Below are positions 856 through 32,823 of a stretch of DNA of 64,000 nucleotides, in pieces; position 1 is the first letter of the stretch, and every line of letters begins with the position of its first letter. The notes beneath the pieces were generated by a model. It saw nothing but the letters and a program-made list of their open reading frames with translations. It was not told where the DNA came from and ran no database searches. Location of the stretch: IMG/VR virus record IMGVR_UViG_3300048577_000544, positions 472-64,471 of that record; one strand, written 5' to 3'. The position numbers and the translations under genes are program-made. Source of the DNA: a virus.

Positions 856-897
856 TTTGGAACCCCCATTATTCTCCGGGGGCCTGGAAAGTGAGGG

Positions 898-1062
898 ATG
901 AGGATGGAAGGCTTGAACCAGGTGGCGCTTGCCGAAGCAACGGGCATCCCTCGCCGGCATATCAGCGAAATGGAGAACGGCCGCCGCCCCATCGGAAAGA
1001 AAAGTGCCCGGCTCCTGGCCGAGGCCCTGAATATTGACCCGAGGCGGTTGCTGACGGTGTAG
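898..1062 (+). pseudogene. XRE-family HTH protein, probably 5'-truncated
   Basis: Hand translation MRMEGLNQVALAEATGIPRRHISEMENGRRPIGKKSARLLAEALNIDPRRLLTV is a typical XRE HTH; only 54 aa, and an in-frame stop lies immediately upstream. Confidence 0.65.
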
Positions 1063-1184
1063 TCTGGTAGGATCAACGACATTTCCCCGGCCTAACCCTG
1101 GCCTCATGAACCAGGGCGAAAAGACGCACTCCAACGTCCTGGCCGGGGTGCTATTTGGAGATCAGGCAATGGAGAGCTTGAGAA

Positions 1185-1898
1185 ATGGCAAGCATTCAGT
1201 ATTATTCATTTTGGCTATGGCAATATGAAGTGCGAAGTGAAAAGCCGCTTGAAGAGAAAACTTTTAGAAATCATAATTATGCAGATCCAAATACAGTAAA
1301 TGTATCTGCGAGTGGTACTGAATTTACAAACAAAATTCCTCAAGATTTGATTATACAGGCCATCATAAATAACGAATTTACGCCATGCGGGCCAAGTATT
1401 TCAAGCGAAATATCCGCCCGTTCTTGTCTAAAACTTTCAAAAGGATTGAATGAATCAAACCTGTTTATTGCAATAAAGTACAACGCTCCACTCGAAAAAC
1501 TTATCCCCGAGATGAAAATGCTCATCGCAATGCAACGGCAATGGGCGGTGACTAAAAAGATAGAAATCACAGAGGAAGATCGCATAAAGGCAGGGCTTGA
1601 GGCTACATTAATCTATCAACAGGCCGAGGAAGAATTAAACGCCTATTTTGTTAAAGACAAACCAAATATACACAAAGAAGGAGCGCAAAGAGCATTAGGA
1701 TTATGGTTATTTGATTATTGTCAAAAACGCTCCTGTGGATGCCCGACTGCTTACGCCGCGCTAGAAAAGACGGGCTACCTAGAAAAATTGAACTACGGAA
1801 AAAAAGACAGTAAAAATGAGGAACGCCATTTTGCCAGACTTCTGAAAAACGCTCGCGATTGCATAGCAGCGTGCGAGGTCTTGCCCATAGGAGGATAG
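1185..1898 (+). CDS. Hypothetical protein (AT-rich), possible island regulator
   Basis: 237-aa ORF with GGAGAG RBS, between integrase and AlpA-like gene. Confidence 0.6.
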   Translation: MASIQYYSFWLWQYEVRSEKPLEEKTFRNHNYADPNTVNVSASGTEFTNKIPQDLIIQAIINNEFTPCGPSISSEISARSCLKLSKGLNESNLFIAIKYNAPLEKLIPEMKMLIAMQRQWAVTKKIEITEEDRIKAGLEATLIYQQAEEELNAYFVKDKPNIHKEGAQRALGLWLFDYCQKRSCGCPTAYAALEKTGYLEKLNYGKKDSKNEERHFARLLKNARDCIAACEVLPIGG

Positions 1899-2068
1899 AT
1901 TTCGTTCTCTTTCCTTCTCCGTCAATTATTTGACATGACACTATTGGCTTGGTCAGTAGTGACAGTGACATTTTCATAAAGTTGGCTACTGTCATTACAG
2001 GCACTCCGTTTCCCGCATATCCTATTCCTATGGGTTCTCACTCATGAACTCAAAAAAGGGAGAAAGGT

Positions 2069-2341
2069 ATGCAGCACAACACGCTCCAGACTACTGATTT
2101 TTTCGAGACAGCCCGCCGTGAGTGTCCAACTCATTTCGGCGTCACAGCCATTCCAAAACTCTTTCCTGACATTATCGCCCCTGGGACCGTCCACAACGCA
2201 ATTTCTGCGGGTGTAGGTCCTACCCACCAGAAGCTCAACGGCCGAATCGTCCTTGAGCGCGATTCCTTCCTGGCGTGGCTGCAAGACCGGCCTCGCGTGG
2301 TGAAGCGCGTCGGTGTGGGCAATGGGGGTGGCGATGCGTAA
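2069..2341 (+). CDS. AlpA/excisionase-like winged-HTH protein
   Basis: 90 aa; APGTVHNAISAGVGPTHQKLNGRIVLERDSFLAWL fits the AlpA/Xis pattern; position typical of satellites. Confidence 0.7.
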   Translation: MQHNTLQTTDFFETARRECPTHFGVTAIPKLFPDIIAPGTVHNAISAGVGPTHQKLNGRIVLERDSFLAWLQDRPRVVKRVGVGNGGGDA

Positions 2342-2594
2342 AAAGCAAAAACCCGACCTTATGATGATCGGGCCTTGCGGGGAAGACAGAAAAAATCGTG
2401 GTTGGTTCTTCCTGTCATTTTCGCGCGGCCCCGTCAACAGTTCCACGCTTCTTCTCGCTGCACTGACCTGTCTCCAAGACAAGTTGGCCCGTTTCGCTAT
2501 GCGGCGGCCGTGGTCTCCGTGGCTGTCGCGCATGGTGGACCGTCTCGAGGTTCTGGCCGTGGCCCTGGCCGAAAAGTCGGGGGTGCGGTCGTGA
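2334..2594 (+). CDS. Hypothetical protein
   Basis: Overlaps the upstream stop and the downstream GTG start (coupled operon). Confidence 0.45.
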   Translation: MRKKQKPDLMMIGPCGEDRKNRGWFFLSFSRGPVNSSTLLLAALTCLQDKLARFAMRRPWSPWLSRMVDRLEVLAVALAEKSGVRS

Positions 2595-3181
2595 TTGTCG
2601 AAAATGACATCCGCATCGTGACGCTCCAATCCTGGGAGTTGTCCGTTGTCCGATCCATGACCGCGACATGGGATTATCCTGGCCGGTCGAACATTCGGGG
2701 CCGCGAGGACCGGGCCGGGACGCTCGGGACTGATGCCCTTGTGGGCCAAATAGGAACCTACGCCGGCCTTAAATTCCTGTACGGGGCTTCCTGCCTCGAC
2801 AAGTACCTGACGGGGCGATGGCACGCGAATCGGCGCAAGTTCGAGGGAGACGGCGGGTCCGATGTTGACGCCTTAAACTTGGACTTCAAGGCTTCCCTGC
2901 GTCGCGATCCGAGCAAGCCCCTACTGTCCTACAATCTGGCCGTACGTCCACGGGAACGCCATGACGATTGGACGTACATTCTCGCCATAGTGGGGTCTTT
3001 GGCCGGGGAACAAGCCTTGGTCTACATCCTCGGATGGGCCTCAACGGCGATGATCCCAGACACCCCCGCCGAAGATGGCCCGCTGGCCGGGGCTCACCTT
3101 CTCCATGCCCGCGAACTTCACCCCCTTCCGCCGTTCAAGTGGCGTTATTTTGAGAGGTGCGCGCCATGCCTGCTGAACTGA
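2591..3181 (+). CDS. Hypothetical protein, possible PD-(D/E)xK nuclease-like fold
   Basis: GTG start overlapping the upstream TGA; motif GDGGSDV...LDFKAS resembles D...(D/E)xK. Confidence 0.5.
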   Translation: MIVENDIRIVTLQSWELSVVRSMTATWDYPGRSNIRGREDRAGTLGTDALVGQIGTYAGLKFLYGASCLDKYLTGRWHANRRKFEGDGGSDVDALNLDFKASLRRDPSKPLLSYNLAVRPRERHDDWTYILAIVGSLAGEQALVYILGWASTAMIPDTPAEDGPLAGAHLLHARELHPLPPFKWRYFERCAPCLLN

Positions 3182-5925
3182 TTTCCATGCTGCGGTCGCT
3201 GTATAACGGCCGACAGGATATTGTGCCACGTCGGTGGGAGAATAGGGGGGGGCGTGCTGGATATTCCCCAATATGCAGTGTGAGGCTAACAGCCGATTGT
3301 CTCATCACTAAGTCCCGAAAAACTGGTGGTGTGACGCGCGGCTTATGCAAGCACTGTGACATCAAACAGTATCAGCCCCTGACTGACGACCTGTTGCAAA
3401 GACACCTCGACGGTCGGGAGGTCCTCGGCTGCTACCCGCTGCTGCCCGGCGGCATATGCAATTTCATCGTGGGCGATTTCGATGACCACACTGGCGACCG
3501 CGACCCAAAAAAAGACGTGCTGGCAGTCCAGGCCGTTGCCGAGGTTCAAGACCTCCCGATGAGCGTCTTCACTTCCCGGAGCGGGGCCGGGTTCCACGGT
3601 TGTTTGTTCTTCGCTGCGCCTTTGCCCGCTTGGAAAGCCCGACTCGTGTACTTCGCGTTGCTGGAAGAAGCCCAGGTTTTAGCTGAGGGCGCGGAGCTAG
3701 GCAGCTTCGACCGGCTCATCCCGATGCAAGACCAGCTGCGCGGCGGGGCCGATCTCGGGAACTTGGTGGCCATGCCGTTCCAGGGCGCGGCCGTGCAGCG
3801 GGGGTTCACGCTCCTGTTGGACCCCGAGACCATGGAGCCATTCGCGGATCAGGTGACGGCGCTTAGGGCCATCAAGCGCGTGACCGAAGCTGACCTCGAC
3901 CGGGTTGTTGCCGAATGGGGCCTCAAGCGGCCTGAGGCAGCCAACAAGGACCGGGAAGGCGCGACCTGTGGAGCCCGACCGACCACGAACGCCTCGTCGG
4001 GCAAGCGGAAGTACGCCGAAAAAGTCCTGCAAACCTCCTGCGAGAAAATCCGACAAAGCCGCCCCGGGGACCAACACGACGTGCGCCTGAAAATGGCCCG
4101 GACTGTTGGGGGGTATCTGCACTATATGGATGAGGCGGTAGCCCTTGCTGCACTGCGCGAGGCGGTGGTTGACAGCGGTGCCCAAGACATTGCAGCGGCC
4201 ATGCAAACTGTTCGGGATGGTCTGGAATATGGCCGGGCCGAACCCATCACGATTCCCGACCAGACCAACAGTACCTCCTCAGGCCACACAAGCCCCCTGG
4301 TGGAGCACGCCGGCCGTCTGTGCCGGGTGAAGTACACCGACAAGGGCGAGGCCGAGTACAAGTCCATTACCAGCTTCCTGTTTCGCCCCATCGAAGCCGT
4401 CTCTGTGGAGGGCGAAGGCGAGTATATCAAAACCGCCTTGGTGGCCGGTGCGGTGACTCGGGAAGTCATGCTCCCGCCCGACTGTTGGACCTCGACACAA
4501 AAGTTCCTGCGCGTCTTGCCCGGCCGGGAGTTCATCTTCACGGGAGCCGCCGTTGACGTGCAACTTGTGCGCGGATTCCTGGCCGGCATGACGATGGATC
4601 AGCGCCAGGGCGTGAGAACTGCCGGCTTTCACGGCGAAACCTTCGTCACCAGCGACGGCGGCTTGACCCCGGAAGGCCCGTCCGACAGGCTGGTTTACAT
4701 CAACGAAATTCAGAGCCCCTGCCGTCTGTTGAGCACTGAAGCAGCGACTGCTGACGATCTGGACGCCATCCGGGAGTCAATCACCGGCTTCAACGCTCCC
4801 AAAGTGGCGATGCCCGTCTTGGGCTGGTCGGTCGCCTGCTTCTTTGCGCCGGTCATCCGTGAAATTCTTGACGCCTTTCCTTTGATTTGCATTGAGGGGG
4901 AGGCCGGGGCCGGCAAGTCATCCACGGTGATGGCCGTCGTGGCGGGTCTATGGGCACTCCACGGGGCGGCCCGTGCGCTTGGTGAGCAAACGCGATTCAC
5001 GCTTATGCGGGCGGTGGACGGCAGCAACTCTGTTCCGCTCATCTTCGAGGAGAACAAGGCCTCTCGTATGTCGGAGAAACAGCAGAACCTTGTCTCCAAC
5101 CTCATTCGCGACGGCTACAATGCCTTTGAGGGTCAGCGCGGCATGGCGGATCAATCCATGCGCTCATACCGCTATCAAGCTCCCGTTTGCATCGTCGGGG
5201 AGACCGGCTTCACCGAAACCGCGATTCTCGACCGGATGGTAAACGTGGCAATGACCCGCCGGGCCAGTGCCCCATATCGGACCGGGTTCCAAAAGGTGCA
5301 ACGCCTGCCCCTGGATCGCTTGGGCCGCACTATCCTGGAACATGCGCTTCGGATGGACGCCGAATCCGTGGGGGCGCGTCTGCGGGACTGCTGGCGCGAC
5401 GTTGGCCCCGCCCTTGAAGACCGGCCGCGCAACAATGCCGCCGTCGTCCGCTTTGGGCTGACCATCCTGGGTGATGTGCTCGGCATGGTCTTCGACGCCT
5501 CTCCTGTTGACGCCGCCATTCTGGCTGGCACGTCGGAAGATGGCGGTCCCCGGAAAACGGCAGTGGACCGCATCATCGAGGCCATGGGGCGTATGGCGGC
5601 ATTCGCAGAGCGTAGCCAGGGCCGCGAGTACACTTTCCAGGATCATCTGGAGCCAGACGTTCACTATTATAGCGACGGGCAGACCCTCCGACTGCATGTG
5701 TCCGGGGCCTACCCGGTCTTTGCAAAGTGGGCGCGGGTCCATGGCTTCGACGGCGACGTGATCCCGGAGGCGACCTTTCGCAAACAAATTCAGGGGGAGG
5801 CATATTTCCAGGGGGGCGGGGCCATCTGGATGGGGAGCAAAACCCGGAAAGGCATCGTCTTGGACGTATCGGCGATGGCGGCCAAGGGGCTGGATGTGCC
5901 CGAGGAGTGGGTAAATGCAAGCTAA
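3157..5925 (+). CDS. Primase-helicase (N-terminal AEP/TOTE-like primase, C-terminal P-loop helicase)
   Basis: N-term YSPIC..CKHC..LTDDLLQRHLDG..GCYPLL..C.F.V.DFD and SRSGAGFHG (AEP motifs); Walker A IEGEAGAGKSST; Walker B-like LIFEE. Confidence 0.85.
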   Translation: MRAMPAELISMLRSLYNGRQDIVPRRWENRGGRAGYSPICSVRLTADCLITKSRKTGGVTRGLCKHCDIKQYQPLTDDLLQRHLDGREVLGCYPLLPGGICNFIVGDFDDHTGDRDPKKDVLAVQAVAEVQDLPMSVFTSRSGAGFHGCLFFAAPLPAWKARLVYFALLEEAQVLAEGAELGSFDRLIPMQDQLRGGADLGNLVAMPFQGAAVQRGFTLLLDPETMEPFADQVTALRAIKRVTEADLDRVVAEWGLKRPEAANKDREGATCGARPTTNASSGKRKYAEKVLQTSCEKIRQSRPGDQHDVRLKMARTVGGYLHYMDEAVALAALREAVVDSGAQDIAAAMQTVRDGLEYGRAEPITIPDQTNSTSSGHTSPLVEHAGRLCRVKYTDKGEAEYKSITSFLFRPIEAVSVEGEGEYIKTALVAGAVTREVMLPPDCWTSTQKFLRVLPGREFIFTGAAVDVQLVRGFLAGMTMDQRQGVRTAGFHGETFVTSDGGLTPEGPSDRLVYINEIQSPCRLLSTEAATADDLDAIRESITGFNAPKVAMPVLGWSVACFFAPVIREILDAFPLICIEGEAGAGKSSTVMAVVAGLWALHGAARALGEQTRFTLMRAVDGSNSVPLIFEENKASRMSEKQQNLVSNLIRDGYNAFEGQRGMADQSMRSYRYQAPVCIVGETGFTETAILDRMVNVAMTRRASAPYRTGFQKVQRLPLDRLGRTILEHALRMDAESVGARLRDCWRDVGPALEDRPRNNAAVVRFGLTILGDVLGMVFDASPVDAAILAGTSEDGGPRKTAVDRIIEAMGRMAAFAERSQGREYTFQDHLEPDVHYYSDGQTLRLHVSGAYPVFAKWARVHGFDGDVIPEATFRKQIQGEAYFQGGGAIWMGSKTRKGIVLDVSAMAAKGLDVPEEWVNAS

Positions 5926-5944
5926 CAGTGAGGGGGGCACCCCC

Positions 5945-6180
5945 CTTACCCCGCCTTACCCCAACCTTACCCCTTTCTTACCCCATAACCAATTGAAATA
6001 TATAATTCCTTACCCTTCTTACCCCTACAGAAAAGGGGGTACACATGAGAGCCCTCCCCACTGCATGGGGCTAGTTTTCCCTTTTTATAGCGAGGGGGTG
6101 TCTCCCAAAGGGGTAAGGAAGGTAAGGTATTAATAAATTCAAATGGTTAATGGGTAAGAAAATGGTAAGTTTAGGGTAAG
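5945..6180. repeat. Iteron array / putative replication origin
   Basis: Six CTTACCC copies (5945, 5955, 5966, 5977, 6009, 6018) facing five (G)GGTAAG copies (6111, 6121, 6152, 6164, 6174); 50-bp imperfect inverted repeat 5977-6026 / 6109-6158 (40/50); directly after the primase stop. Confidence 0.8.
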
Positions 6181-6266
6181 GAACTAACCCCTACTGAAAA
6201 AAGGGGGCAGGCGACACTGTCTTATTGCCGTGAGGTCGTGACGTACCATGGCCAGGGAGGGGAATA

Positions 6267-6617
6267 ATGAAAACCGATTTCTACGACACCATGCTCAATT
6301 GCATCATTTCCGCAGGTGCTGGCCAGAAGATCGCCGAGAAGGCTGTTGAAGGACTCCTTACAGTGCTTGGCGGATCGTATATCCCAAAGATCGACCCCGC
6401 CATCCCAGGCCGAAACAAGCGCATTATACATGCGTGGCGGCTGGGCTACTCCTCAAGGGAACTATCTGAAGGGTATGGTGTGAGTCAAAGAACGATCCAA
6501 CGGTTATGCAAAAATGTCCCGAAAGACCTTTCCGCGTGCCTCTTGGGGACAACCCGCGATTACTACAGCCTGTCGCTTTCCGATGGTTTCATCGACACGG
6601 GGGACGGGAAAAAATAA
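6267..6617 (+). CDS. Mor/C-family transcription activator
   Basis: LGGSYIPK...RNKRIIHAWRLGYSSRELSEGYGVSQRTIQRL matches the Mor pattern (GG..yiP, C-terminal HTH). Confidence 0.75.
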   Translation: MKTDFYDTMLNCIISAGAGQKIAEKAVEGLLTVLGGSYIPKIDPAIPGRNKRIIHAWRLGYSSRELSEGYGVSQRTIQRLCKNVPKDLSACLLGTTRDYYSLSLSDGFIDTGDGKK

Positions 6618-6634
6618 CAAAAATATTTTATAGT

Positions 6635-6663
6635 GGCGACATGAAACTATATACCGTGTCGCC
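6635..6663. promoter_or_regulatory. Dyad GGCGACA-N15-TGTCGCC, candidate activator/operator site
   Basis: Perfect 7-bp inverted repeat just after the Mor-like gene and upstream of the next operon. Confidence 0.35.
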
Positions 6664-6718
6664 TAGTAGTGGCAACATTCGTGTAATGGTGGTTCACGAA
6701 ACAGAGAGGAGCATCGAT

Positions 6719-6928
6719 ATGGACGACGAGTTTAAAAACACAGCGGTAGAGTTTTTTAAAACTCCCGGCACTCGCATGACACGGCTCCAATTGGCGCGGC
6801 ATTGCGATGTGGCCGTCAGCACAATCACTGCCTACCTGTTGGGATATTGCCCGATGCCTTCGCATGTCCGTGAGAAGATCGAGGCGCTGATGGAGACGGC
6901 ACGGGGTCGTGTACTGCCCCAAGTGTGA
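6719..6928 (+). CDS. Small HTH DNA-binding protein
   Basis: MTRLQLARHCDVAVSTITAYLLG is HTH-like; AGAGGAG RBS. Confidence 0.6.
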   Translation: MDDEFKNTAVEFFKTPGTRMTRLQLARHCDVAVSTITAYLLGYCPMPSHVREKIEALMETARGRVLPQV

Positions 6929-6969
6929 TTAATCTTCACGTCAGATTAACAAAACGAGGCTGAACACTT

Positions 6970-7254
6970 ATGGCGGTAAACTTATTGGCAGCGGAACAGG
7001 ACGTCAATCAGCTTTTACACGAGGCTGTTGCACAGGACGGCCAGATGTTTCGTGTCTCCTACATTGAACGGCACGGGGAAGGACGGCTTGTCAGCATCGG
7101 TAACGCCGACGCTACCGTCGAGATTCCCTATGACGCGGTGCCGGGTGTGGCGCGAGCGCTTGAGCGGTTCGTGGAGGGCGAGGCTATCCGTGGTTTGGAA
7201 AACGTCGCTTTCACTCGCGGGTTGAAGCGGTCTTATCAAGGGTGGCGGCAGTAG
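6970..7254 (+). CDS. Hypothetical protein
   Basis: 94-aa ORF with GAGG RBS, abutting the TerS start. Confidence 0.55.
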   Translation: MAVNLLAAEQDVNQLLHEAVAQDGQMFRVSYIERHGEGRLVSIGNADATVEIPYDAVPGVARALERFVEGEAIRGLENVAFTRGLKRSYQGWRQ

Positions 7255-7746
7255 ATGGAATTAAAGCAAACTGAGAAATCGAAAGGCGGACGGCCGACCG
7301 GCTACACCGAGGAGATAGGCGACGAAATATGCGCCCGAGTGCTGGCAGGCGAAACAATCAATGAGATTTGCGCGGGCCAGGATATGCCGCCTGTGAGAAC
7401 CCTGTACGGTTGGCTAAAGCAAGTACCAGCGTTCGAGCAGGCGTACGCGCGCGCGCGGGCTGAATCCGGGCAGGCCAGCGAAGGTAAAATACGCGGCTAT
7501 ATGCGGCAGGTGGTGACCGGCGAGCTTGATTCGACAGCCGCGCGTGTTTTGATCGACGCTGAAAAATGGCTTGCGTCAAAACGTGCCCCACGGACCCATG
7601 GTGATCGTGTCGAGGTCGAGCATAGCGGCACTGTCGGCCAAGCCATGCAGGTCACCGTCAACGTCGTGGGTTATGATCCATCGCCGCCCGCCATCGATGT
7701 TGTGCCTACTGCTACTGCGTTGCCTACGGCATCTGTAGAGAATTAA
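7255..7746 (+). CDS. Terminase small subunit (Sf6/P22-like, HTH)
   Basis: GGRPTGYTEEIGDEIC..VLAGETINEIC...DMPPVRTLYGWL...F..AYARAR and C-terminal GDRVEVEHSG are characteristic TerS motifs. Confidence 0.85.
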   Translation: MELKQTEKSKGGRPTGYTEEIGDEICARVLAGETINEICAGQDMPPVRTLYGWLKQVPAFEQAYARARAESGQASEGKIRGYMRQVVTGELDSTAARVLIDAEKWLASKRAPRTHGDRVEVEHSGTVGQAMQVTVNVVGYDPSPPAIDVVPTATALPTASVEN

Positions 7747-7779
7747 AACGTGTAACACACTTGAAAATAAGGGGAAAAC

Positions 7780-8193
7780 ATGGCCGACACACCTTTCATG
7801 GACATTCGTTCCGCCGTCCGAACCATTGAAACCACGTCATTCGATTCTGCCGAGAACCGCGCTGGCAGGGAATTCTTGCGCGGACAGATGGATGACTCGG
7901 CCCGCGACAGCTTCGACGACGCCGTAACGACCCTTCGTGCGTCATTGGCCCCGATGACTCCCGAAGATCGCGAGGCGTGGCGGGGTTTCCACTGCGAGAT
8001 TGCGCCGGGCGATGGCCTCAATTTCGTCGTTAATGCGATCCCGGCCGTCTCGCTGCGAGAAGTTTCTTCGATCTCAGGCCCCGGCGTTGCGCCCCGGTTT
8101 GGCACTCCCACCACGCAGCGCGGCGCTCTTTATCGCTACGTGGAGTCGATTGCGCCCCACACCCCGGACGGCCCGACGTCCAGCACCGCCTAA
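7780..8193 (+). CDS. Hypothetical protein
   Basis: 137-aa ORF with AAGGGG RBS. Confidence 0.55.
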   Translation: MADTPFMDIRSAVRTIETTSFDSAENRAGREFLRGQMDDSARDSFDDAVTTLRASLAPMTPEDREAWRGFHCEIAPGDGLNFVVNAIPAVSLREVSSISGPGVAPRFGTPTTQRGALYRYVESIAPHTPDGPTSSTA

Positions 8194-8238
8194 ATCAGAC
8201 GCCTGACCCTAAACCGTTCCATCAAAGGAGTCTCACGT

Positions 8239-10080
8239 ATGTCGCTTTTGTTTCCCGATCCGACGCAACCAGCGTTCCCGCTTGCCGAGCAAATCCAGTG
8301 GGACTTGCAGGGAGACAAGGGCGCGGCGGATCGGTTGCGCGGCGTGGGACTCCAAGTGATGGAGCAGTTAAAGCGAGAAAACGTCAACGATTACCCAATA
8401 TATCGCCTTGGTCCGTTTGAATATCCGGGCGGCGTGAGGGTTCGCGTGTTTCGCCAGAAGCAAATCTTCGTGGACCTGTACATCGTCTCCATCTACGCGC
8501 CGCCAAGTGAACAGCCGAAGCAGGTAGAAGATCGGGAGCTGATACCGGAGTTGGAGAAGGGTCAGTTCTATTGGGTGCCGGGGTGTGTGGCGCGGTATGA
8601 TGCCGTCAAGGACTCCAAGAACTGCATACCAAGCGGGCCGCTTGCGGGGGAGTCGGTAAGTGCAGCCGGTAATGCTTCTGGGGCAACCTCAGTGTTGGCT
8701 TACAGGTGTATTGACTTTGGCCTTCCAACCCCCGGTGCCTCTCCCGATGGGAGTATCGTCCGTAACTACCACGCGGTGGTTTTGCCGGGCAATTCGGTAG
8801 ATACGGCAATGGCGGATATAGATTCGGGCCTTACTTTTTCGGCTGACCATATCCCAACTTCGGGACCTTTTTCACTTTCGTGTATAGTAAAGCTCAATTC
8901 TCCTGTAAAAGTAGACTACAGTTTCACTGAAAAAACCAACGAACTCAATGATGGATTCACAAACTATAACATATTTAAGCCCAGGTTTCTGACGTCCGCT
9001 GATGGCGAATCATGGTCATCCCTTTGCCCTGGAAGTCTCGCCCCCCTAATCGGATGTCTTGAAATTTCCAGATTCTCTGACCATTGGGTCAAGATTACGC
9101 CCCCCTGGCCACCGTACAACGACAACTTTGTGGACAACGCAGTGCATGCGATTGGATATCGAGAGATCGGCACAATTTGCGCCGACGAACCGCTGCTGAC
9201 GTCCGACTATGATGCCGCGTCCCCCTATTGGGATAAGGTGACGACTGGCGAACTGGAGGCGCTTTCCGGGGAGTTTGATGGCGGGTGGGCAGAAAATACG
9301 GAGACGGCAAACACCACGCCTTATGCGTCGTATTGCCGTTTCAAGGTTTTGGGTAGCCACGTCAAGCCCGTTGGCACCCGCGCTATTCGCGCCCTGGATG
9401 GTGGCGAAAAAAGATATTCCACGGTCTACTCATGCAGTTATGACGAAGGCACAGACACTACGTCTTTCGTTCTCAAGGACTACCAACACAAGCTGTATAT
9501 GACCGAATCGGATGGTGAAGCCTCAATCATATTCGGACAACAGCCGTTCCCTGTCTGCCATCCGCAAGGTTATATGGTCGGCATGAACCTGTTGGGCATG
9601 TGCTGGTTTAATGGGAACCGCATCCTTGCTGGGAAGGTATGCGACTTCCAGGGAGAGTACGCATTACCTCCCACCATGTCCGATCCTCTGGAAATTGGCG
9701 AGTGGTATCATGTTTGTATGACATATGACGAAGAGGGGAAGACGAATCTATACACAACAAAGCTCGGTGTGCGGACAATTAATGTAAAGAGTTTTTTGCA
9801 ATCAACCTCAGTATTTATTCCAGACAAAGATTTAAAGTTTTATTCTGGCATTGAAATGTGGAACAACGCCCCAAGCGTTACAGCTCCATCTTCAGAATGG
9901 AGAGCCGCTTGGGTTTATTCAGCAGCAATGGACATTGGCCTGCCGAGATTTTATTTTCATGCACTCTCCGATGATGAAGTACGCGCGTTATTACTTGAGT
10001 CGTTCCATGGGGTATTTGTAGCGGACGATTACGAAGCCGCACAACTGATAGGGGCTGGCCTAACGCCAGTAACACTGTAG
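8239..10080 (+). CDS. Putative virion/tail-associated protein with LamG/ConA-like lectin segment
   Basis: AAGGAG RBS; EIGEWYHVCMTYD...TNLY and terminal RFYFHALSDDEV resemble LamG-fold signatures. Confidence 0.55.
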   Translation: MSLLFPDPTQPAFPLAEQIQWDLQGDKGAADRLRGVGLQVMEQLKRENVNDYPIYRLGPFEYPGGVRVRVFRQKQIFVDLYIVSIYAPPSEQPKQVEDRELIPELEKGQFYWVPGCVARYDAVKDSKNCIPSGPLAGESVSAAGNASGATSVLAYRCIDFGLPTPGASPDGSIVRNYHAVVLPGNSVDTAMADIDSGLTFSADHIPTSGPFSLSCIVKLNSPVKVDYSFTEKTNELNDGFTNYNIFKPRFLTSADGESWSSLCPGSLAPLIGCLEISRFSDHWVKITPPWPPYNDNFVDNAVHAIGYREIGTICADEPLLTSDYDAASPYWDKVTTGELEALSGEFDGGWAENTETANTTPYASYCRFKVLGSHVKPVGTRAIRALDGGEKRYSTVYSCSYDEGTDTTSFVLKDYQHKLYMTESDGEASIIFGQQPFPVCHPQGYMVGMNLLGMCWFNGNRILAGKVCDFQGEYALPPTMSDPLEIGEWYHVCMTYDEEGKTNLYTTKLGVRTINVKSFLQSTSVFIPDKDLKFYSGIEMWNNAPSVTAPSSEWRAAWVYSAAMDIGLPRFYFHALSDDEVRALLLESFHGVFVADDYEAAQLIGAGLTPVTL

Positions 10081-10089
10081 GAGGCTAAT

Positions 10090-10917
10090 ATGGACATTTT
10101 GACGCAGTATTACAACCATGGCGGCCAGATCGTCAGCAAAGTCCCCGGAATGGACACACGCGAGTTTTACCGGGATGTGATGTTTCGGCATCGGTTTAAG
10201 GAAATGTTCTGTGCGGGGTCGGAATCTGACGGCGTTGGTTTTGCATATTCAGATACTGGAATTTACTTGAACTGCGGAAATATGCCAGGGGGCTTACCGC
10301 TATCGAACATCAATGACGCCAGCGTTGTATATTCCATGGTGGCCGGGTCGAATGGCAATCAAGCCATACAACCAACGGCAATCAGCATGTTGCCGGCTGT
10401 CTCTGGATATAAAGCTTTTGCCCTTTCTACGGGAGAAAACGACACCGTAGATTTGAAAGTTAAAAACATACGGCTCCGCGCGGTTATTAAGCTGGGTGCT
10501 TCTATACGCAACATGAGCTTGCAAGTTTATGATGGAGCGACCGGCGCGGGAATCGAGGGAAAGCGCGAGACTTATTTTCAAATCGGCATCAACAAATGGG
10601 ATAACACTAGAATCATCCAGATGTATGCGCCGACGACTCTCTACAGGGGATATGCGTCTGACGCTGATTTAGATTGGTATGTAAGCAATAGCTACACCGA
10701 TGGATTCCTATTCGACAACGCATTTCATGTCTATGATGCCTTTCTGAATGTTGATGGGGCTATCAATCTGCAAGTAGACGGAGTTACCGTATTGAGTGGG
10801 AGCTTCCCATCCCCCTGGATAGAGGGGTTTTACTCTCCAGTATTGCAGGTGCTTTGTGGCTTTGATGATGGAACCGAAACCTATGCCATCGAATCGCTTG
10901 AGGTAAAAGCTATATGA
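10090..10917 (+). CDS. Hypothetical beta-rich protein (tail module)
   Basis: GAGG RBS; FHVYDAFLNVDGAINLQVDG is lectin-like; coupled to the next gene. Confidence 0.55.
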   Translation: MDILTQYYNHGGQIVSKVPGMDTREFYRDVMFRHRFKEMFCAGSESDGVGFAYSDTGIYLNCGNMPGGLPLSNINDASVVYSMVAGSNGNQAIQPTAISMLPAVSGYKAFALSTGENDTVDLKVKNIRLRAVIKLGASIRNMSLQVYDGATGAGIEGKRETYFQIGINKWDNTRIIQMYAPTTLYRGYASDADLDWYVSNSYTDGFLFDNAFHVYDAFLNVDGAINLQVDGVTVLSGSFPSPWIEGFYSPVLQVLCGFDDGTETYAIESLEVKAI

Positions 10918-11513
10918 AACTTCCCTACCCCCAAAGCGTCAACTGCTCCTTCGATGGATTCCCTGCGGCCATTGCTATGACCTGCGGCGAGAGGATAAAC
11001 GAAATTGAGCCGGGCGAATCCTACGGCTCTCGCCAAAGGTTGTTCCAAACCCCGAAGAGTCGGGTTCTCCAAGGCGAGTATGTGGTGGGGCAAGCGATAC
11101 CCGATCTTGCCGTGACCTACTCCGACACGGGCAGCGACGACGATTTCAGCATTAAGCTTTCACACATCGGCTACGGCACGTTCTACAAGCTTACAAAGTC
11201 CGACAAATATTTCCGCGCCATGGTCTACAAGGCCATTGTGATCGAGACGCCCACGGCAGGCAAAAAAGTCTTCGGCGATACCTTCGATTGTGAAACTCTT
11301 ATCCCAGCCGACACGGACACGACGGCGCTGTTCTCGTATGATGGGCCGGCTATCCAATATGTCGACACCGCCACCTCGGGAAGTGCCTCCGGGACCATCG
11401 TCATCGGGGGGCAGACTTACAACCTCGCGGAAGGTGCCAGCATCACGATCACATCGGCAACCGGCGGCACTCAAACGGTCACATTCGTCGGTGGCACATT
11501 CGTCGTCAACTAA
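10914..11513 (+). CDS. Hypothetical protein (tail module)
   Basis: ATGA overlap with the upstream gene; Thr/Gly-rich beta C-terminus. Confidence 0.55.
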   Translation: MKLPYPQSVNCSFDGFPAAIAMTCGERINEIEPGESYGSRQRLFQTPKSRVLQGEYVVGQAIPDLAVTYSDTGSDDDFSIKLSHIGYGTFYKLTKSDKYFRAMVYKAIVIETPTAGKKVFGDTFDCETLIPADTDTTALFSYDGPAIQYVDTATSGSASGTIVIGGQTYNLAEGASITITSATGGTQTVTFVGGTFVVN

Positions 11514-11547
11514 TCCCTGCCGGGTAGATAGAAAGGGAAACTATCGT

Positions 11548-13224
11548 ATGAGTGCTTCAATTCTCTCCTACATCGCCACCATGGACGCCGCCACCGTGGA
11601 CAACCCCACGGGTGACGGATTTTGCGTCACCCCGCTTTGCACCGGCACCGGAACCGGCACGTCTGGCTGTGTCGCTCTTGCCGATATCCCGGCCATGACC
11701 TGCGATGGCGTAGCCGATTGGGCACCGATAGGCATTGCCACGCTGCCGACTATGGCCGCCATGGGCACGACAGACGATTACCGCCCGGCCTGGGGTGATC
11801 TGTCCTTGCCCGCCCTTTCTGGCGACGGCACGGCACATGTGATCATTGAGTCGCAATGCCTGCTCACGCCGCTTTTCGGTGTCGGCTACACCGGGGCCGT
11901 GGCTAGTAATGCGATGCCTGCTTTTTCGGCCTACGGGATTGACGACTCTTTCAACCGTGCGGCGTCCGGTGCCGGGACAATTCCGTCCCTGACCGCTTCA
12001 ACGCTCGTTTGCGGCATCGACAAGCCCATCGACAACGGGGCGACATCCGCCGCCGTGGTCAACCTGCTCCAGCAGGGAAACACGACGATAGCCGATGCGG
12101 CCGAAGCAGTTTGCACTGGGATGACCACCTCCGACGCCAAGGCTTTGGTCCTGGTCCGGTATGTGTCGAATCTCCTGACGTACACCTCGGACAGTTCGAG
12201 CGGCATAGGCGACCGCTGGACGTGCGCCCTGGCGACCTTGCAGCGCGAGTACGGCGACTGCGAGGATGGGGCTATCCTGCTCCATTCTCTGCTTCTCGCG
12301 GCTGGCGTTAACCCTGGCCGCATCCGCACGGCGTTTGGAACGGCGATGTCCTCGGCACTTACCGAGGTCGGTCACGCCTGGGTCATGTATCGCCGACTGA
12401 CGGACGAGGAATGGATACCGTTGGAATGGACGGCGCAGCCGACGCCGTACACGGTCCCCATTTATTCCATCAATCGGCAAGTGGACCGGGCGGCCGACTA
12501 CACGGCGATTTCCTATATCTTGACCGATGAGAAATTCTACACCGTAGCAGACATCAACTACATCGCCAATCTCGCGGCGAATCGTTCAACCGGAGAAGCC
12601 GCGATACCGGCTCTTGAAGCTGACGGTGCTTCCGGTCCTCGGTGTGCCGCATCGCTTCGCCTGGGCAAGATGGACGCCACGGGGCAGGCCGGCGCAAGTC
12701 TTTCCGACTATCTGCCAAAATTGGTGGCGATGGGGAGCGGGCAACAGCTTGGAACAGCCCAAGGCGCGGCGATTATGCCGGCCCTGGCCGCCACCGGCTA
12801 CACTGGTGCCCACGGCGCGGCCTCGCTCTCGAAGCTGGCGGCGGTCGCGCAATGCGGCACATCGGCCAGCGGTAAGGCGAACATCCCGGCATTGACCCTT
12901 TCCGCTTCGGCCCAGGTCGATCTTCTGTGCGCCGGTTCGCTCTCGCTGCCCAAGCTGACGATGACGGGCCGGGGCAACGGTGGCTCCCTGCTGGCGGCTG
13001 CCGCGACACTGCCGCCTTTGGCAGTCACCGGCCGGGCCAAGCAAGGGCCTGTCGCCAAAGGTGCGGGCAAGCTCCCGCGACTCTCTTGCCTTGGTCATGC
13101 GGCTGTTCTTGTTGTGGCAGAGGGGGACGCCGAGTTGCCGCCGTTGGAAGGCCGAGGCCACGCGGTCAACGTCTCCACCTCCTGGGGCAAGCCTCTGCGA
13201 TATAATCCGAACCGGTGGGCGTAA
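11548..13224 (+). CDS. Repeat-rich fibre-like protein with inserted transglutaminase-like (LapG/BTLCP-type) cysteine protease domain
   Basis: Start at MSASIL (AAAGGG RBS); YTSD...DRW...GDCEDGAI...GHAW...PLEW gives a C-H-E triad; about 16 (G/A)-x2-3-(L/I/M)P-x-(L/M)-x3-G repeats on both sides. Confidence 0.7.
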   Translation: MSASILSYIATMDAATVDNPTGDGFCVTPLCTGTGTGTSGCVALADIPAMTCDGVADWAPIGIATLPTMAAMGTTDDYRPAWGDLSLPALSGDGTAHVIIESQCLLTPLFGVGYTGAVASNAMPAFSAYGIDDSFNRAASGAGTIPSLTASTLVCGIDKPIDNGATSAAVVNLLQQGNTTIADAAEAVCTGMTTSDAKALVLVRYVSNLLTYTSDSSSGIGDRWTCALATLQREYGDCEDGAILLHSLLLAAGVNPGRIRTAFGTAMSSALTEVGHAWVMYRRLTDEEWIPLEWTAQPTPYTVPIYSINRQVDRAADYTAISYILTDEKFYTVADINYIANLAANRSTGEAAIPALEADGASGPRCAASLRLGKMDATGQAGASLSDYLPKLVAMGSGQQLGTAQGAAIMPALAATGYTGAHGAASLSKLAAVAQCGTSASGKANIPALTLSASAQVDLLCAGSLSLPKLTMTGRGNGGSLLAAAATLPPLAVTGRAKQGPVAKGAGKLPRLSCLGHAAVLVVAEGDAELPPLEGRGHAVNVSTSWGKPLRYNPNRWA

Positions 13225-13230
13225 TCGACC

Positions 13231-13503
13231 ATGCCCAGCTTGTTTGATCCTCTTGTGTTCCTGGAACGCGAAACACGTTGCGAGGTTGCCCTTGATGACG
13301 AGGGGGTGGTGCGCCTGAAGTTCGACCGGCGGCATACCCCGGAGAACATCAAAAAGGCCCAGGCCGTGGCCAAGCGGTATGACCGGCTGCTGACGTTGCA
13401 GCTACGGGAGGGACACAAAAGCGTTCAAAAGCTCTTGGCGCTCGGCAAGATCAAGCTGGTTGGCAGGCGGTATGTCCTGCCGGGGGCTACTCCGTCTCCT
13501 TGA
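13231..13503 (+). CDS. Small hypothetical protein, paralogue of 32551-32823
   Basis: Aligns by eye with the prophage ORF (FDP..L...C...L..G.V.L.FD...D.LL.LQL...VQ.L.A.G.I....RYV). Confidence 0.7.
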   Translation: MPSLFDPLVFLERETRCEVALDDEGVVRLKFDRRHTPENIKKAQAVAKRYDRLLTLQLREGHKSVQKLLALGKIKLVGRRYVLPGATPSP

Positions 13504-14254
13504 GTTGTGTGCCCGATCTGCCTACAGGGCGCTCGTAATAATCTTCAATGCGCCGTACCAATTCATTACGAGCAAGCCCAGCTTCCTCTTCTGTTTCAAA
13601 TTCTATTGAAATGCCGTCATCAAATTCCGAGTCCACAGACACATATCCGGTTATACTTGTTTTAAAGCTATAACCCTTTGTTCTTGTGCCATCACTGAGA
13701 TCGACAAAGGATATAATCCCATACTCGACATCTGATACCCCATTGATGTGCGCGAGGGGTATAAGCCGGCCACCGAGAAAAACAAGATTTTTAAGTTCTC
13801 CCCGAGCCTCGAAGTTGTAAGGGCATTGTTTTTCGGCATCATCTTTATCATTCATGCTATCTGCTTCCTCTGCCTCAATCAACGCCTTCAGCTGTTCTTG
13901 TGGCAAATGGTTAAATCCATGACAACCTGTCAAAATGGCATGTTTTATTGTTGGCGGGTAATCGCGACATAGTCCTGGCTTCAAATCTTCAATACGACAA
14001 CGATAAGCGTCTTTCTTTGGGAGCTTCCGAAGCCAAGGACAACGCCGAGCGCTCTCCCCCTCGGCGGGATGGACCCAAATGTCGTATCCGACCGGAACTT
14101 TTTTGTTATAAAACACGTAAACCCATTCTAAAATATCATATCGCTCGGCACGTTTCCACATCCTGTAGTCCGTGCCAGAAACGCTGGCCGCGCAGGCATT
14201 CAGTTCAAGGCAGCAATGGCCACAACGCTTGCAGATAAAACCCCTTGGCGGCAT
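13487..14254 (-). CDS. YkgJ-family cysteine-cluster protein with C-terminal extension
   Basis: CKRCGHCC...CPWL...CRIEDLKPGLCRDYP pattern; an internal Met (MNDKDD) suggests a fusion of two domains. Confidence 0.7.
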   Translation of the reverse strand: MPPRGFICKRCGHCCLELNACAASVSGTDYRMWKRAERYDILEWVYVFYNKKVPVGYDIWVHPAEGESARRCPWLRKLPKKDAYRCRIEDLKPGLCRDYPPTIKHAILTGCHGFNHLPQEQLKALIEAEEADSMNDKDDAEKQCPYNFEARGELKNLVFLGGRLIPLAHINGVSDVEYGIISFVDLSDGTRTKGYSFKTSITGYVSVDSEFDDGISIEFETEEEAGLARNELVRRIEDYYERPVGRSGTQLKETE

Positions 14255-16644: not shown

Positions 16645-17311
16645 TTATGGACCTCAAATAGACCTGACGCACAACTGGGGGCGTCCAGGCGCGGCCCGTC
16701 TTGGTCAAGATGCCATCGGCATTCATCTGGTTGGCAATCCGATGGTAACCATGCCCCTTCGCTCTCAAACTCTCGATGAGACGTAAGCCCCTCTGCTCTG
16801 CCGGGTTCTCCACCAGCTTGCCGGCCAACACATCGAAGCCGAAGGGGATGCCCCCGCCGGTCTTTTCTCCACGGCTCCGCTTGGCTTTCAGTGCATCTTT
16901 TGTGCGCTCCCCGATGGCTTCTCGTTCCCATTGGGCCACGCTCATCAACACGTTTAGCACCAACCTTCCGCCGGCACTGCTCGTGTCTACCTGTTCGGCC
17001 ACCACGAGAAGATGGGCATTCCCACTGAAATGCTGTTCCAGAAGATCGCCCATGTCGCGGACAGAACGCGTCAGTCGGTCTAACTTGGCGATCAGTAGGC
17101 CGGCAGCCTTCCCGGCGCGAAGGGCATCAAGCACGCTTTGCAACCCATGGCGGCGAAGGTTTTTTCCGCTGGCGGCCTCGGTGACGACCTCCACCATCTC
17201 GTGGCCGTACAGATCGCAGTAAGCCCTAAGCTTTGCGGTTTGGGCTTCTAGGCCCAGCCCGCTTGCGCCCTGCTCGTCAGTGGAAACCCTGGCGTAACCG
17301 ATGACTTTCAT
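16631..17311 (-). CDS. Serine recombinase (resolvase domain plus short recombinase domain)
   Basis: GYARVSTDEQ (catalytic Ser), EAASGK, AKLDRLTR, ERTKDALKAKR..GEKTGG; GGAGGG RBS. Confidence 0.93.
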   Translation of the reverse strand: MKVIGYARVSTDEQGASGLGLEAQTAKLRAYCDLYGHEMVEVVTEAASGKNLRRHGLQSVLDALRAGKAAGLLIAKLDRLTRSVRDMGDLLEQHFSGNAHLLVVAEQVDTSSAGGRLVLNVLMSVAQWEREAIGERTKDALKAKRSRGEKTGGGIPFGFDVLAGKLVENPAEQRGLRLIESLRAKGHGYHRIANQMNADGILTKTGRAWTPPVVRQVYLRSISEAA

Positions 17312-17573
17312 GGTGCCGCCCTCCGTTGGCTGAAACGTGGCACAGTGGTCGATAAATGTCAAAAAGTATTTTTATGGTCATTGTCCAGAGCGGAAATCGT
17401 AGCCCTTCGACCGATGACTTACGGTTTTGGCCTATGGCGGTCAAAGTGGCTCAGATGGAGCTTGTCATTGTGCTTCTGGCCAAGGACACCACGGCCTTGC
17501 CCGAGAAGGCCGGCATGAGATACATTCAAGCCGACACCATCAAGATCGAGGAGGACCGGCCTTTGTGCGCCGC

Positions 17574-17672
17574 GTCCTGGGCAAGACGCGCTTCGAGCTA
17601 TTCAAGGCCGGTAAGCTGTCCCTGTCGGGCATGGTGACGGACGGGCGGATCAAGAAACTTTCGGAACTGTAG
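17574..17672 (+). pseudogene. C-terminal remnant of a phage minor head morphogenesis (SPP1 gp7/Mu gpF-like) gene
   Basis: VLGKTRFELFKAGKLSLSGMVTDGRIKKLSEL* resembles the family C-terminus; the upstream part is unrelated. Confidence 0.45.
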
Positions 17673-17683
17673 AAGGAGAGAGC

Positions 17684-18133
17684 ATGGACAAAGGAACTTG
17701 CATAAACGCAGGTGTTATGTCGGCTAACGATTTCTTCAAAGACCTAGACAGTTCTCTTAAAGAACAACTCAACAGAAAGAACAAAAAGAAACAGGACCTT
17801 GACAATCAAAGAGCAAAAGCGGGGAAGGACTCATGGCCCATTGTGAAAAATTATGCGAGCCGTTATAATCCTCGCGACAAGGTTATAGAGACGGAGGAAA
17901 GTAAAGAAATAAACTACGGATTTTCTGTAACAGTATATAGGAATGGTAAGAAATATTACAAGTTGTCCCTTGGAAAGGATGACTTTGAAATCCATGGAGA
18001 TGGTGCAACACAATTAATTGAAGATATCATGAATATGAAAGCCCCACCTCAGCCTAGTATCTATCGATGGGACAAAGTTGAATTTGAAAAGTTTCTCCAA
18101 CACTTGATAAAGTCTGCACTTGTCTTTGAGTAG
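17684..18133 (+). CDS. Hypothetical protein (AT-rich)
   Basis: 149-aa ORF with AAGGAG RBS and downstream terminator. Confidence 0.6.
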   Translation: MDKGTCINAGVMSANDFFKDLDSSLKEQLNRKNKKKQDLDNQRAKAGKDSWPIVKNYASRYNPRDKVIETEESKEINYGFSVTVYRNGKKYYKLSLGKDDFEIHGDGATQLIEDIMNMKAPPQPSIYRWDKVEFEKFLQHLIKSALVFE

Positions 18134-18153
18134 AAGACAGCAGGAACGATAAC

Positions 18154-18193
18154 AAAGCGCCCTCTGAGACGATTCGGGGGCGCTTTGTTTTTC
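18154..18193 (+). terminator. Intrinsic terminator
   Basis: AAAGCGCCC...GGGCGCTTT followed by T-run. Confidence 0.7.
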
Positions 18194-18265
18194 TCCTACA
18201 CGCCAACGTCCAAGGAACGATTTGAGATCAAAGCTATTGCCGGCCAGGGCCATGACGAAGACGCC

Positions 18266-18484
18266 CACGGCAAGGATGTCGAGGCGCTACTTCTGGCCGT
18301 CGTCAGGCTTCTAGCCGCTGACCAGCCGCTTCCATCGTTCAACCGCGACCATGCACTGATTGGCGAATGGTGCGACCATAGGGATTGCCACCTCAAGCCA
18401 GACCTTGTGCTTATGTATCGCAAGACACAAGATGGCTTCCTTGACCTAGTGCGACTCGGGTCACATAGCGGACTTGGGATGTAG
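18266..18484 (+). pseudogene. yafQ: YafQ-family mRNA interferase toxin, 5'-truncated, no antitoxin
   Basis: RDHALIGEW.DHRDCHLKPDLVLMYRK...LVRLGSHS is the YafQ signature; the N-terminus is replaced by terminator-derived sequence. Confidence 0.75.
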
Positions 18485-18893
18485 GCCGACAGCGATGAGT
18501 CGTTGCACAGGAACAGAACTGTGCAGTCACGCCGACGTCACGATCGGTCAGGGCAAAGTTGTCCTTGACGGCCATGCCCACGGGATGCGGATACACTACA
18601 CCCCCTCCCCGGTCATCAACACACGGATAGGGGAGGCTGATAACCCCCACCCCTATGCCCCCCAAGACGAGGATGGGACCCACGCTGTTTGTAGTACCTC
18701 CACCTTCAATTTTACCAACTTCCAGGAGTATCCAATGCGATTAAAAGACATCATCTGGCCGTGGGGTACGACATGGTCAGGCCTTGACAGGGTATCCCTC
18801 TGGGGACATTTATAACTGTAGTTGATAAATTGAAGATTGCTATGCACTTGACCGCCGGTTGAGCCGACAAAAAAAACACAACGAGGGTTACGC

Positions 18894-32550: not shown

Positions 32551-32823
32551 CTACTCCTTCAGCGTCACCACATACCGCCCATCCCTGATTCGTATCCGCC
32601 CCGCCGCCATCAACTGTTGCACGGTTCTAGGGCGTGTCCCCGGCGGCACGTCGAGTTGGAGTCGCAGCAGGCCGTCCCAATTGCGGATGATGCGGCGAAT
32701 CCGTTCCCGGACCTCCCGTCGCATGTATTCGTCAAACAGGAGTTGCACCGAGCCGTCGGCGGCCAGTGAGGCGACGCACCCCTTGCGCGCCAGCCAGGCG
32801 CGAGGGTCAAATGGTGAGGACAT
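32551..32823 (-). CDS. Small hypothetical protein, paralogue of 13231-13503
   Basis: Alignment with the island ORF; lies at the end of the tail-fibre module. Confidence 0.65.
   Translation of the reverse strand: MSSPFDPRAWLARKGCVASLAADGSVQLLFDEYMRREVRERIRRIIRNWDGLLRLQLDVPPGTRPRTVQQLMAAGRIRIRDGRYVVTLKE

Follow-up and report, generated by a model that had tools for sequence, protein, structure and literature searches.

A repeat-flanked, transglutaminase-fold cysteine peptidase in a predicted adsorption module of Desulfovibrionaceae prophages

The window analysed here is a 64,000-nucleotide stretch (positions 472 to 64,471) of IMGVR_UViG_3300048577_000544, an IMG/VR provirus record of 66 kb. 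By translation, window positions 11548-13224 (+) encode a protein of 558 residues that we call tg558 (P0001). We find that tg558 contains a transglutaminase-fold cysteine peptidase, with an intact and conserved C-H-(D/E) triad, set between two runs of a short repeat. In related prophages, the gene belongs to a trio located among virion genes. The data are consistent with tg558 being a virion fibre that displays a protease, the protease acting on a host envelope protein. We favour this model as a whole with slightly less than even confidence.

The peptidase core and its relatives

Four motifs, DRW (residues 222-224), GDCEDGAI (236-243), GHAW (275-278) and PLEW (291-294), are present in tg558. 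A preliminary description, made from the DNA alone, had read these as an apparently intact C-H-E triad. That reading is borne out by an alignment of 56 tg558 homologues, with identity to the query down to 25-30%. In all 56 sequences, G236-D-C238-E-D-G241, G275-H276, W278, R283, D286 and W294 are invariant. The nucleophile, C238, is the central residue of D237-C238-E239 (12256-12264, +) and H276 (12373-12375, +) is the predicted catalytic histidine. The third triad position, E293 in tg558 (12424-12426, +), is always acidic; aspartate occurs in 35 sequences and glutamate in 21. Hence, the family is canonically C-H-D and the window member is a C-H-E variant. Residues 185-293 match positions 4-107/108 of the Pfam Transglut_core profile PF01841 (30.1 bits against a cut-off of 23, E 6.1e-7), with E293 at profile position 107/108. 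The profile match and the conserved triad, in canonical order, place tg558 in the transglutaminase superfamily.

The same description had suggested a check against two profiles, PF01841 and the BTLCP profile PF06035. While the first was matched, the second was not; PF06035 reached 12.9 bits against a cut-off of 27 (E 0.096) and covered residues 192-262 only. The CEP76 peptidase-like profile PF24656 fell just under its cut-off (27.2 bits against 27.8) and DUF553 was also below threshold (12.6 bits).

A structural model was made with AlphaFold2 (AF2) from the homologue alignment. Residues 150-345 (11995-12582, +) were predicted with a local distance difference test score (pLDDT) above 90, and this core superposes on the transglutaminase fold. 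The top solved match was Legionella LapG by sequence profile, Foldseek and VIA alike. Using VIA, LapG (4fgo) gave a Z score of 13.3 and a root mean square deviation of 3.9 Å over 146 aligned residues. Foldseek gave E 1.4e-5 with a TMt of 0.55-0.60. In the profile search of PDB sequences, LapG was the sole match (4fgo, E 3e-4; 4u65), over the DxW...GDCEDxAI block. Statistically tied with LapG were axonemal domains of the DRC7/CEP76 type (Z 13.1-12.7) and Streptococcus pyogenes TglA (Z 12.3). Eukaryotic transglutaminases scored about Z 10 and the pseudomurein endoisopeptidases PeiP and PeiW scored 9.6 and 9.4, respectively. The latter enzymes also appeared among the Foldseek matches, and Pei of psiM2 was found in BFVD, where matches to the fold were largely without names.

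DvhG is the Desulfovibrio counterpart of LapG. Its residues D316 and E318, around C317, form a calcium site required for activity, and the D316A/E318A and C317A variants are inactive (PMC13090378). The invariant D237-C238-E239 of tg558, where the nucleophile is between two acidic residues, is a calcium motif of BTLCP type and aligns to GDCED in 4fgo and 4u65. Since nucleophile, base, acid and calcium-site residues are all strictly conserved, the tg558 peptidase is probably active and, judged from these residues, probably dependent on calcium.

Is tg558 a LapG? LapG and DvhG (BTLCP, MEROPS C93, PF06035; PDB 4FGO and 4U65) share with tg558 the transglutaminase fold, a triad of C-H-D type and the DxW...GDCEDxAI block. 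However, identity in the structural alignment is just 15-17% and tg558 falls below the Pfam threshold. Unlike these enzymes, tg558 has no signal peptide or anchor, has no LapD or type I secretion system (T1SS) alongside, contains about 360 residues of repeats and is encoded among phage structural genes. The absence of a signal peptide, claimed previously, was confirmed by eye; no basic n-region or hydrophobic core is visible, the N-terminus is acidic, and D13 and D18 fall inside the would-be h-region. We conclude that tg558 is neither a LapG orthologue nor a member of the BTLCP family (PF06035, MEROPS C93), because the Pfam cut-off is missed, no export signal is present and the genomic surroundings are wholly different. 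The earlier label, "LapG-like cysteine protease", hence needs qualifying. "LapG-like active site" is a fair description, given the top solved match and the D-C-E motif, while family membership is contradicted by PF06035, and the LapG match itself is tied with DRC7/CEP76 and TglA.

The same evidence bears on whether tg558 does the job of LapG. If so, the enzyme would act in the periplasm, releasing giant T1SS adhesins of the host, so that infected cells or lysogens leave the biofilm. A system similar to Lap, named Dvh, exists in Desulfovibrio, and its two adhesins are cut at [T/A/P]AAG (PMC13090378); LapG is also the nearest solved structure and shares the calcium motif. A further point concerns one related provirus, L088, where an open reading frame (ORF) of at least 1569 codons (L088:14546-19252, +) starts downstream of the tg558 homologue, at a distance of about 2.9 kb, and extends past the end of the locus. 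This giant ORF combines a GGDEF diguanylate cyclase, a ddrB-like ParB domain and Rho_N. LapG and DvhG are controlled by cyclic di-GMP, so the presence of a synthase for this molecule near a LapG-like protease is suggestive. Conversely, the PF06035 score, the lack of a signal peptide or membrane anchor, and 360 repeat residues with no equivalent in LapG argue otherwise. In the loci examined, there was no linkage to LapD/DvhD, T1SS or giant adhesin genes; all identifiable neighbours were phage genes, and always structural ones. We consider a true LapG/DvhG counterpart the least probable of the explanations discussed here.

Alternatively, the core could be a pseudo-enzyme, serving as a receptor-binding head with no catalytic role. 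Axonemal transglutaminase-like domains of the DRC7/CEP76 type are thought to be non-catalytic. Such domains score as high as LapG (Z 13.1), and PF24656 reached 27.2 bits. However, the nucleophile, base, acid and flanking acidic residues are retained strictly in sequences down to 25-30% identity, which argues for catalysis. Very little probability attaches to a binding-only domain, or to the related idea that the window copy is an unused remnant, which we consider below.

Phages also encode small (~160-240 aa) transglutaminase-like or BTLCP proteins (PMC11283719). These have the same core but stand alone, whereas tg558 is flanked by repeats and tied to two partner proteins, p199 and p613. BTLCP was the most frequent "auxiliary" gene in single-virus genomes from river water, its function not being tested (PMC11283719). 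In addition, PF01841, PF04473 and PF06035 are found in atlas clusters of predominantly viral membership. In the literature, we found no paper describing the repeat-flanked form or a fibre-borne peptidase.

Architecture of tg558 and the 21-residue repeats

The tg558 reading frame is already open from position 11290. We place the start at the ATG at 11548, which is preceded by an AAGGGA Shine-Dalgarno sequence (9-14 nt upstream) and follows the stop of the upstream gene at 11513. In all tg558 homologues, the start methionine and the motif M..(I/L)xDYI..M(E/D)A are found at the equivalent position. Hence, ATG 11548 is taken as the real start. A first search recovered 48 homologues and an exhaustive search 30 clusters at E<1e-30; P0002 (65% identity) and P0003 (62% identity) are closest to tg558. 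A metagenome locus search with P0001 alone found nothing.

Briefly, tg558 begins with a conserved segment (residues 1-45; 11548-11682, +), continues through an N-terminal repeat run (residues 47-165; 11686-12042, +), the catalytic core and a C-terminal repeat run (residues 346-540; 12583-13167, +), and ends in a tail, LxY(D/N)xxRW (13180-13221, +), conserved in most close homologues. The M..(I/L)xDYI..M(E/D)A motif and a GTGTCG motif of the N-terminal segment are kept family-wide, including in short forms of 460 residues. We suggest that this segment is a candidate virion-attachment end.

About 6 LPxLxxxG repeats before the core and 10 after it had been reported previously, and these counts hold. 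The strict motif [LIM]P.[LMPFA]...[GAS] occurs 12 times in tg558, compared with 0.65 ± 0.8 times (maximum 4) in 2000 shuffled sequences. Spacings are 19-21 residues, or 36 where a degenerate copy intervenes. In the N-terminal run, strict motifs are at residues 47, 66, 87 and 123, with degenerate copies near 105 and 144. In the C-terminal run, they are at 353, 389, 410, 446, 467, 488, 509 and 530, with degenerate copies near 371 and 428. Hence, with degenerate copies counted, there are ~6 repeats of ~19-21 residues before the core (47-165) and ~10 of ~21 residues after it (353-540). Pooling 520 repeat windows from the family gave a consensus of G at -4, L at 0, P at 1, L at 3, G at 7, A at 9 and 15, and G at 17, with periods of 21, 19 and 17. 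Some homologues have AP(M/L)P in place of LPxL. Copy number also differs widely between homologues, being 0-8 in the N-terminal run and 1-12 in the C-terminal run.

Pfam has no model for the 21-residue unit and the sole family match is phrog_38263, of unassigned function. Our exhaustive search also identified five further database proteins that match in the repeats only, with the unit G..TLPxLTASG. In P0175, a sialate O-acetylesterase (SASA) domain has repeats on both sides, the same "inserted head" layout as in tg558. The repeats accompany a SPRY domain in P0173 and other globular domains in P0159 and P0183. P0183, otherwise unrelated to tg558, ends in a tail shared with tg558, LRYN.RW. In P0083, about 27 copies follow one another with high regularity and match phrog_38263; a BNR-like SxDxGxTW motif was recognised in this protein by eye only. 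Because the repeat recurs around SASA, SPRY and other domains, it appears to be a general-purpose scaffold on which surface-directed heads are carried. In a large protein database, the C-terminal repeats on their own retrieved just P0001 and P0002 among the candidates, low-complexity words crowding the list. Viral-contig locus searches with P0183 or P0175 singly found nothing, and a six-frame scan of the window and 161 loci detected the repeat in tg558 homologues only.

The idea that the repeats form a fibre comes from this comparison of architectures. In the AF2 monomer, the repeats have a pLDDT below 50, each unit being drawn as two short strands (a β-hairpin). Thus, the AlphaFold check proposed in the preliminary description supported the transglutaminase fold, and a fibre was not seen. 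A shaft that depends on oligomerisation is possible. Two further interpretations of the repeats were rejected. Matches of the C-terminal run to outer-membrane β-barrels and pores (BamA, BtuB, perforin) were weak (Z 4-5); the low pLDDT, and strands with no alternating hydrophobic pattern, also counter a barrel. Nor are the repeats cleavage sites of LapG type, as there is no [T/A/P]AAG anywhere in tg558.

Could the repeats instead be substrate, rather than scaffold? If tg558 acted on the phage's own proteins, it would be a maturation protease for p199, p613 or the repeats, or a transglutaminase cross-linking fibre components. The fold family includes true cross-linking transglutaminases and TglA (Z 10-12), and tg558 is invariably encoded with p199 and p613. 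However, the D-C-E motif and the highest-scoring matches favour the BTLCP branch, which is hydrolytic. Furthermore, the repeats have neither a conserved Gln/Lys pair nor a [T/A/P]AAG-type site; they are also shared by proteins that lack a protease domain and, therefore, do not constitute a dedicated substrate. We consider a self-directed activity improbable.

Partner genes and position among virion genes

Loci related to the tg558 region were drawn from genomes, IMG/VR and metagenomes, and the window proteins were mapped onto each; certain contigs were recovered from two of these collections. In about 43 of 45 loci, a homologue of p199 (10914-11513, +) is located upstream of a near-full-length tg558 homologue. 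A homologue of p613 (8239-10080, +) is also present wherever the contig is long enough. The gene order is p613-p275-p199-tg558 in the closer group and p199-x-tg558-p613-like in a more distant Solidesulfovibrio group. The variable member, p275 (10090-10917, +), separates p613 from p199 in many viral contigs, its homologues often being conserved at the N-terminus alone. PHROGs and NCBIfam gave no match for p613, p275, p199 or p90 (a small protein described below), and p199 has no match in Pfam either.

In annotated Desulfovibrionaceae prophages, head-closure genes are found on one side of the p199/tg558/p613 trio and tail genes on the other. In L088, a 54.6-kb provirus, genes for a major head protein, an SU10-type adaptor, the head closure protein Hc3 and a virion structural protein are followed by the module. 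In Solidesulfovibrio alcoholivorans DSM 5433 (L012), the module is flanked by portal, major capsid protein and Hc3 genes on one side, and by phrog_10969, phrog_644 and tail protein genes on the other. Within the 10-kb flanks, no tape-measure, tube or sheath gene was seen between the head genes and the module. Hence, the phages that bear it are probably short-tailed.

The partner p613 is a candidate receptor-binding protein. AF2 predicts a lectin fold (a ConA-like jelly-roll; pLDDT 67) and there is a weak Pfam match to Laminin_G_3. By VIA, the model resembles carbohydrate-binding domain 4 of AbnA (Z 18.2), lectin-like receptor-binding domains of clostridial toxins (Z 16-17), the tailspike of cyanopodophage Pan3 (Z 15.2), CBM40 modules (Z 13) and TSP2 of phage CBA120 (Z 12). 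Alignment to PDB sequences by profile search returned only noise for p613.

Domain exchanges connect tg558 with other virion proteins. In an 807-residue variant (L095:8708-11128, +), two copies of a domain stand in for the N-terminal repeats. This domain is homologous to residues 39-178, in the N-terminal part, of pp683, the 683-residue tail protein (phrog_6079) of the prophage in the window. In P0078 and P0082, a core of tg558 type is fused to a C-terminal "virion structural protein" domain (phrog_26502). L088 has a separate gene of 149 codons just downstream of its tg558 homologue, with a weak match to phrog_26502. Two marks of a tail fibre are thus seen: genes of the family are encoded within a virion structural block (L088 and L012) and their domains are exchanged with other tail proteins. 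Together, the p613 fold, the domain swap in L095 and the phrog_26502 fusions place tg558 in a predicted phage adsorption apparatus. The protease had been proposed to be virion-displayed or exported. Gene context supports display, while no export signal or Lap/Dvh neighbourhood was found.

The position of the gene is also relevant to the strongest rival of our model, in which tg558 is a cell-wall endopeptidase of the virion. The core would then cleave peptide cross-links of peptidoglycan, allowing a short tail or ejected proteins through the periplasm. The repeats, rich in Gly and Ala, would be flexible, or capable of unfolding, so as to pass through or extend from the tail. Tail tips can contain cysteine peptidases of the related NlpC/P60 type, as in gpK of phage lambda. 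The site between head-closure and tail genes of an apparently short-tailed phage is a frequent one for ejection proteins, and the low AF2 confidence for the repeats would also fit. In addition, the fold is common to PeiP and PeiW (Z 9.6 and 9.4), which cleave an isopeptide bond of the cell wall (PMC10318531). Like tg558, these enzymes of methanogen viruses (PDB 8JX4 and 8Z4F) are virus-encoded cysteine peptidases of the transglutaminase fold, and they act on the host envelope. However, they function in lysis, contain repeats that bind pseudomurein and do not belong to a tail module, and the host of tg558 is a Gram-negative bacterium. Moreover, LapG-type and other transglutaminase-like proteins outscore Pei, the same repeats carry SASA and SPRY domains typical of external fibres rather than ejection proteins, the tg558 N-terminus is interchangeable with a tail-protein domain, and the partner p613 has a lectin fold. 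The shared fold and the suitable gene position make the endopeptidase our leading alternative, if an unlikely one.

Island setting and proposed function

The copy of the module in the window has a different setting. Upstream are genes for an integrase (67-855), an AEP primase (3157-5925) and TerS, the small terminase subunit (7255-7746). In window positions 1-13503, TerS is directly followed by the four-gene adsorption module and there are no head genes. In this window only, the module is closed by p90 (13231-13503, +). This protein is 34% identical (E 2e-11) to a paralogue of 90 residues (32551-32823, -), located at the end of the fibre genes of the neighbouring prophage; in the fetched loci, p90 was not found beside tg558 homologues elsewhere. 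Convergent on the module is an ORF of 255 codons (13487-14254, -), with an N-terminal C..C..CC cluster recognised by eye and no NCBIfam match.

None of the other loci examined (about 45 with the module) contains the integrase, primase or TerS of the window. Hence, the window copy is the sole satellite-like setting seen, and we propose that a satellite-like island captured the module. The adjacent prophage encodes a tape-measure protein, tail proteins and the reverse transcriptase of a diversity-generating retroelement (DGR). The tape-measure and tail proteins indicate a morphotype other than that of the usual module carriers. A 495-residue protein of this prophage (35330-36817) adjoins the DGR reverse transcriptase and has homologues downstream of the module (~17000-18500) in four loci of the distant group (L174, L175, L178 and L182); L182 also encodes a homologue of the DUF4376 fibre protein of the window prophage. 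Thus, fibre genes are common to podo-like prophages and those with a tape-measure protein. The possibility that the island copy is an unused remnant, to which the absence of head genes would be suited, is countered by the four module genes all being intact.

In our preferred interpretation, tg558 serves as a structural component of an adsorption (tail-fibre) module of phages. The short conserved N-terminus would probably anchor it to the particle. The two repeat runs would probably form an extended, β-rich stalk, most likely only as an oligomer, with the putatively calcium-dependent, transglutaminase-fold cysteine peptidase placed between them. During adsorption, the enzyme may cleave an envelope protein or peptide of the host; in the Desulfovibrionaceae host, candidate substrates would include an adhesin at the cell surface, a protein of the biofilm matrix or some other surface protein. 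The S-layer or adhesin substrate put forward in the preliminary description is likewise conjectural. The neighbouring lectin-fold protein, p613, would supply binding. The island module, if expressed, would presumably be mounted on the particles of a helper phage.

On this model, tg558 would be a proteolytic counterpart to the glycan-cleaving or deacetylating heads of tailspikes. Enzymatic tailspikes and fibres (CBA120 TSP2, the phi92 endosialidase, fibres with SASA esterases) likewise have a receptor-modifying enzyme on a virion appendage, beside lectin-like binders. However, their known heads are glycosidases, lyases and esterases, whereas the tg558 head is a peptidase, located mid-chain between repeat runs, and tg558 has no predicted β-helix.

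Several points weigh against the model. The presence of tg558 in virions is a prediction from gene context. Since AF2 gives the repeats no confident fold, "fibre" is an analogy. As the island has no head genes, use of the window copy is open to doubt. tg558 matches no PHROG or NCBIfam family, and tblastn searches of 50,697 GenBank phage records, with the whole protein or the core alone, found no homologue; therefore, no characterised phage serves as a guide. We know of little precedent for a protease head on a phage fibre. Finally, LapG-type enzymes act in the periplasm, at a site not exposed outside the cell, and their substrate cannot simply be transferred to tg558. We are doubtful of a more specific version of the model, in which tg558 would be a fibre-displayed, calcium-dependent "proteolytic depolymerase" of LapG type, borne by phages of sulfate reducers and a satellite, that cuts the giant adhesins or protein matrix of Desulfovibrio biofilms, with LPxLxxxG as a previously undescribed, general stalk for enzyme display.

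To our knowledge, the known enzymes of phage appendages attack sugars, and proteases would be unusual in an adsorption module. If our model is true, a conserved peptidase built into a fibre would mean that phages also cut host protein layers. The 21-residue repeat is an unannotated building block, and knowledge of its fold would help to annotate many phage proteins. The island, where the complete module accompanies integrase, primase and TerS genes and head genes are absent, is of interest for the question of how satellites could redirect helper particles. Desulfovibrio is a group relevant to corrosion. Biofilm formation by these bacteria depends on two giant protein adhesins (PMC13090378) and, for this reason, an enzyme of tg558 type could serve as a practical tool for biofilm dispersal.

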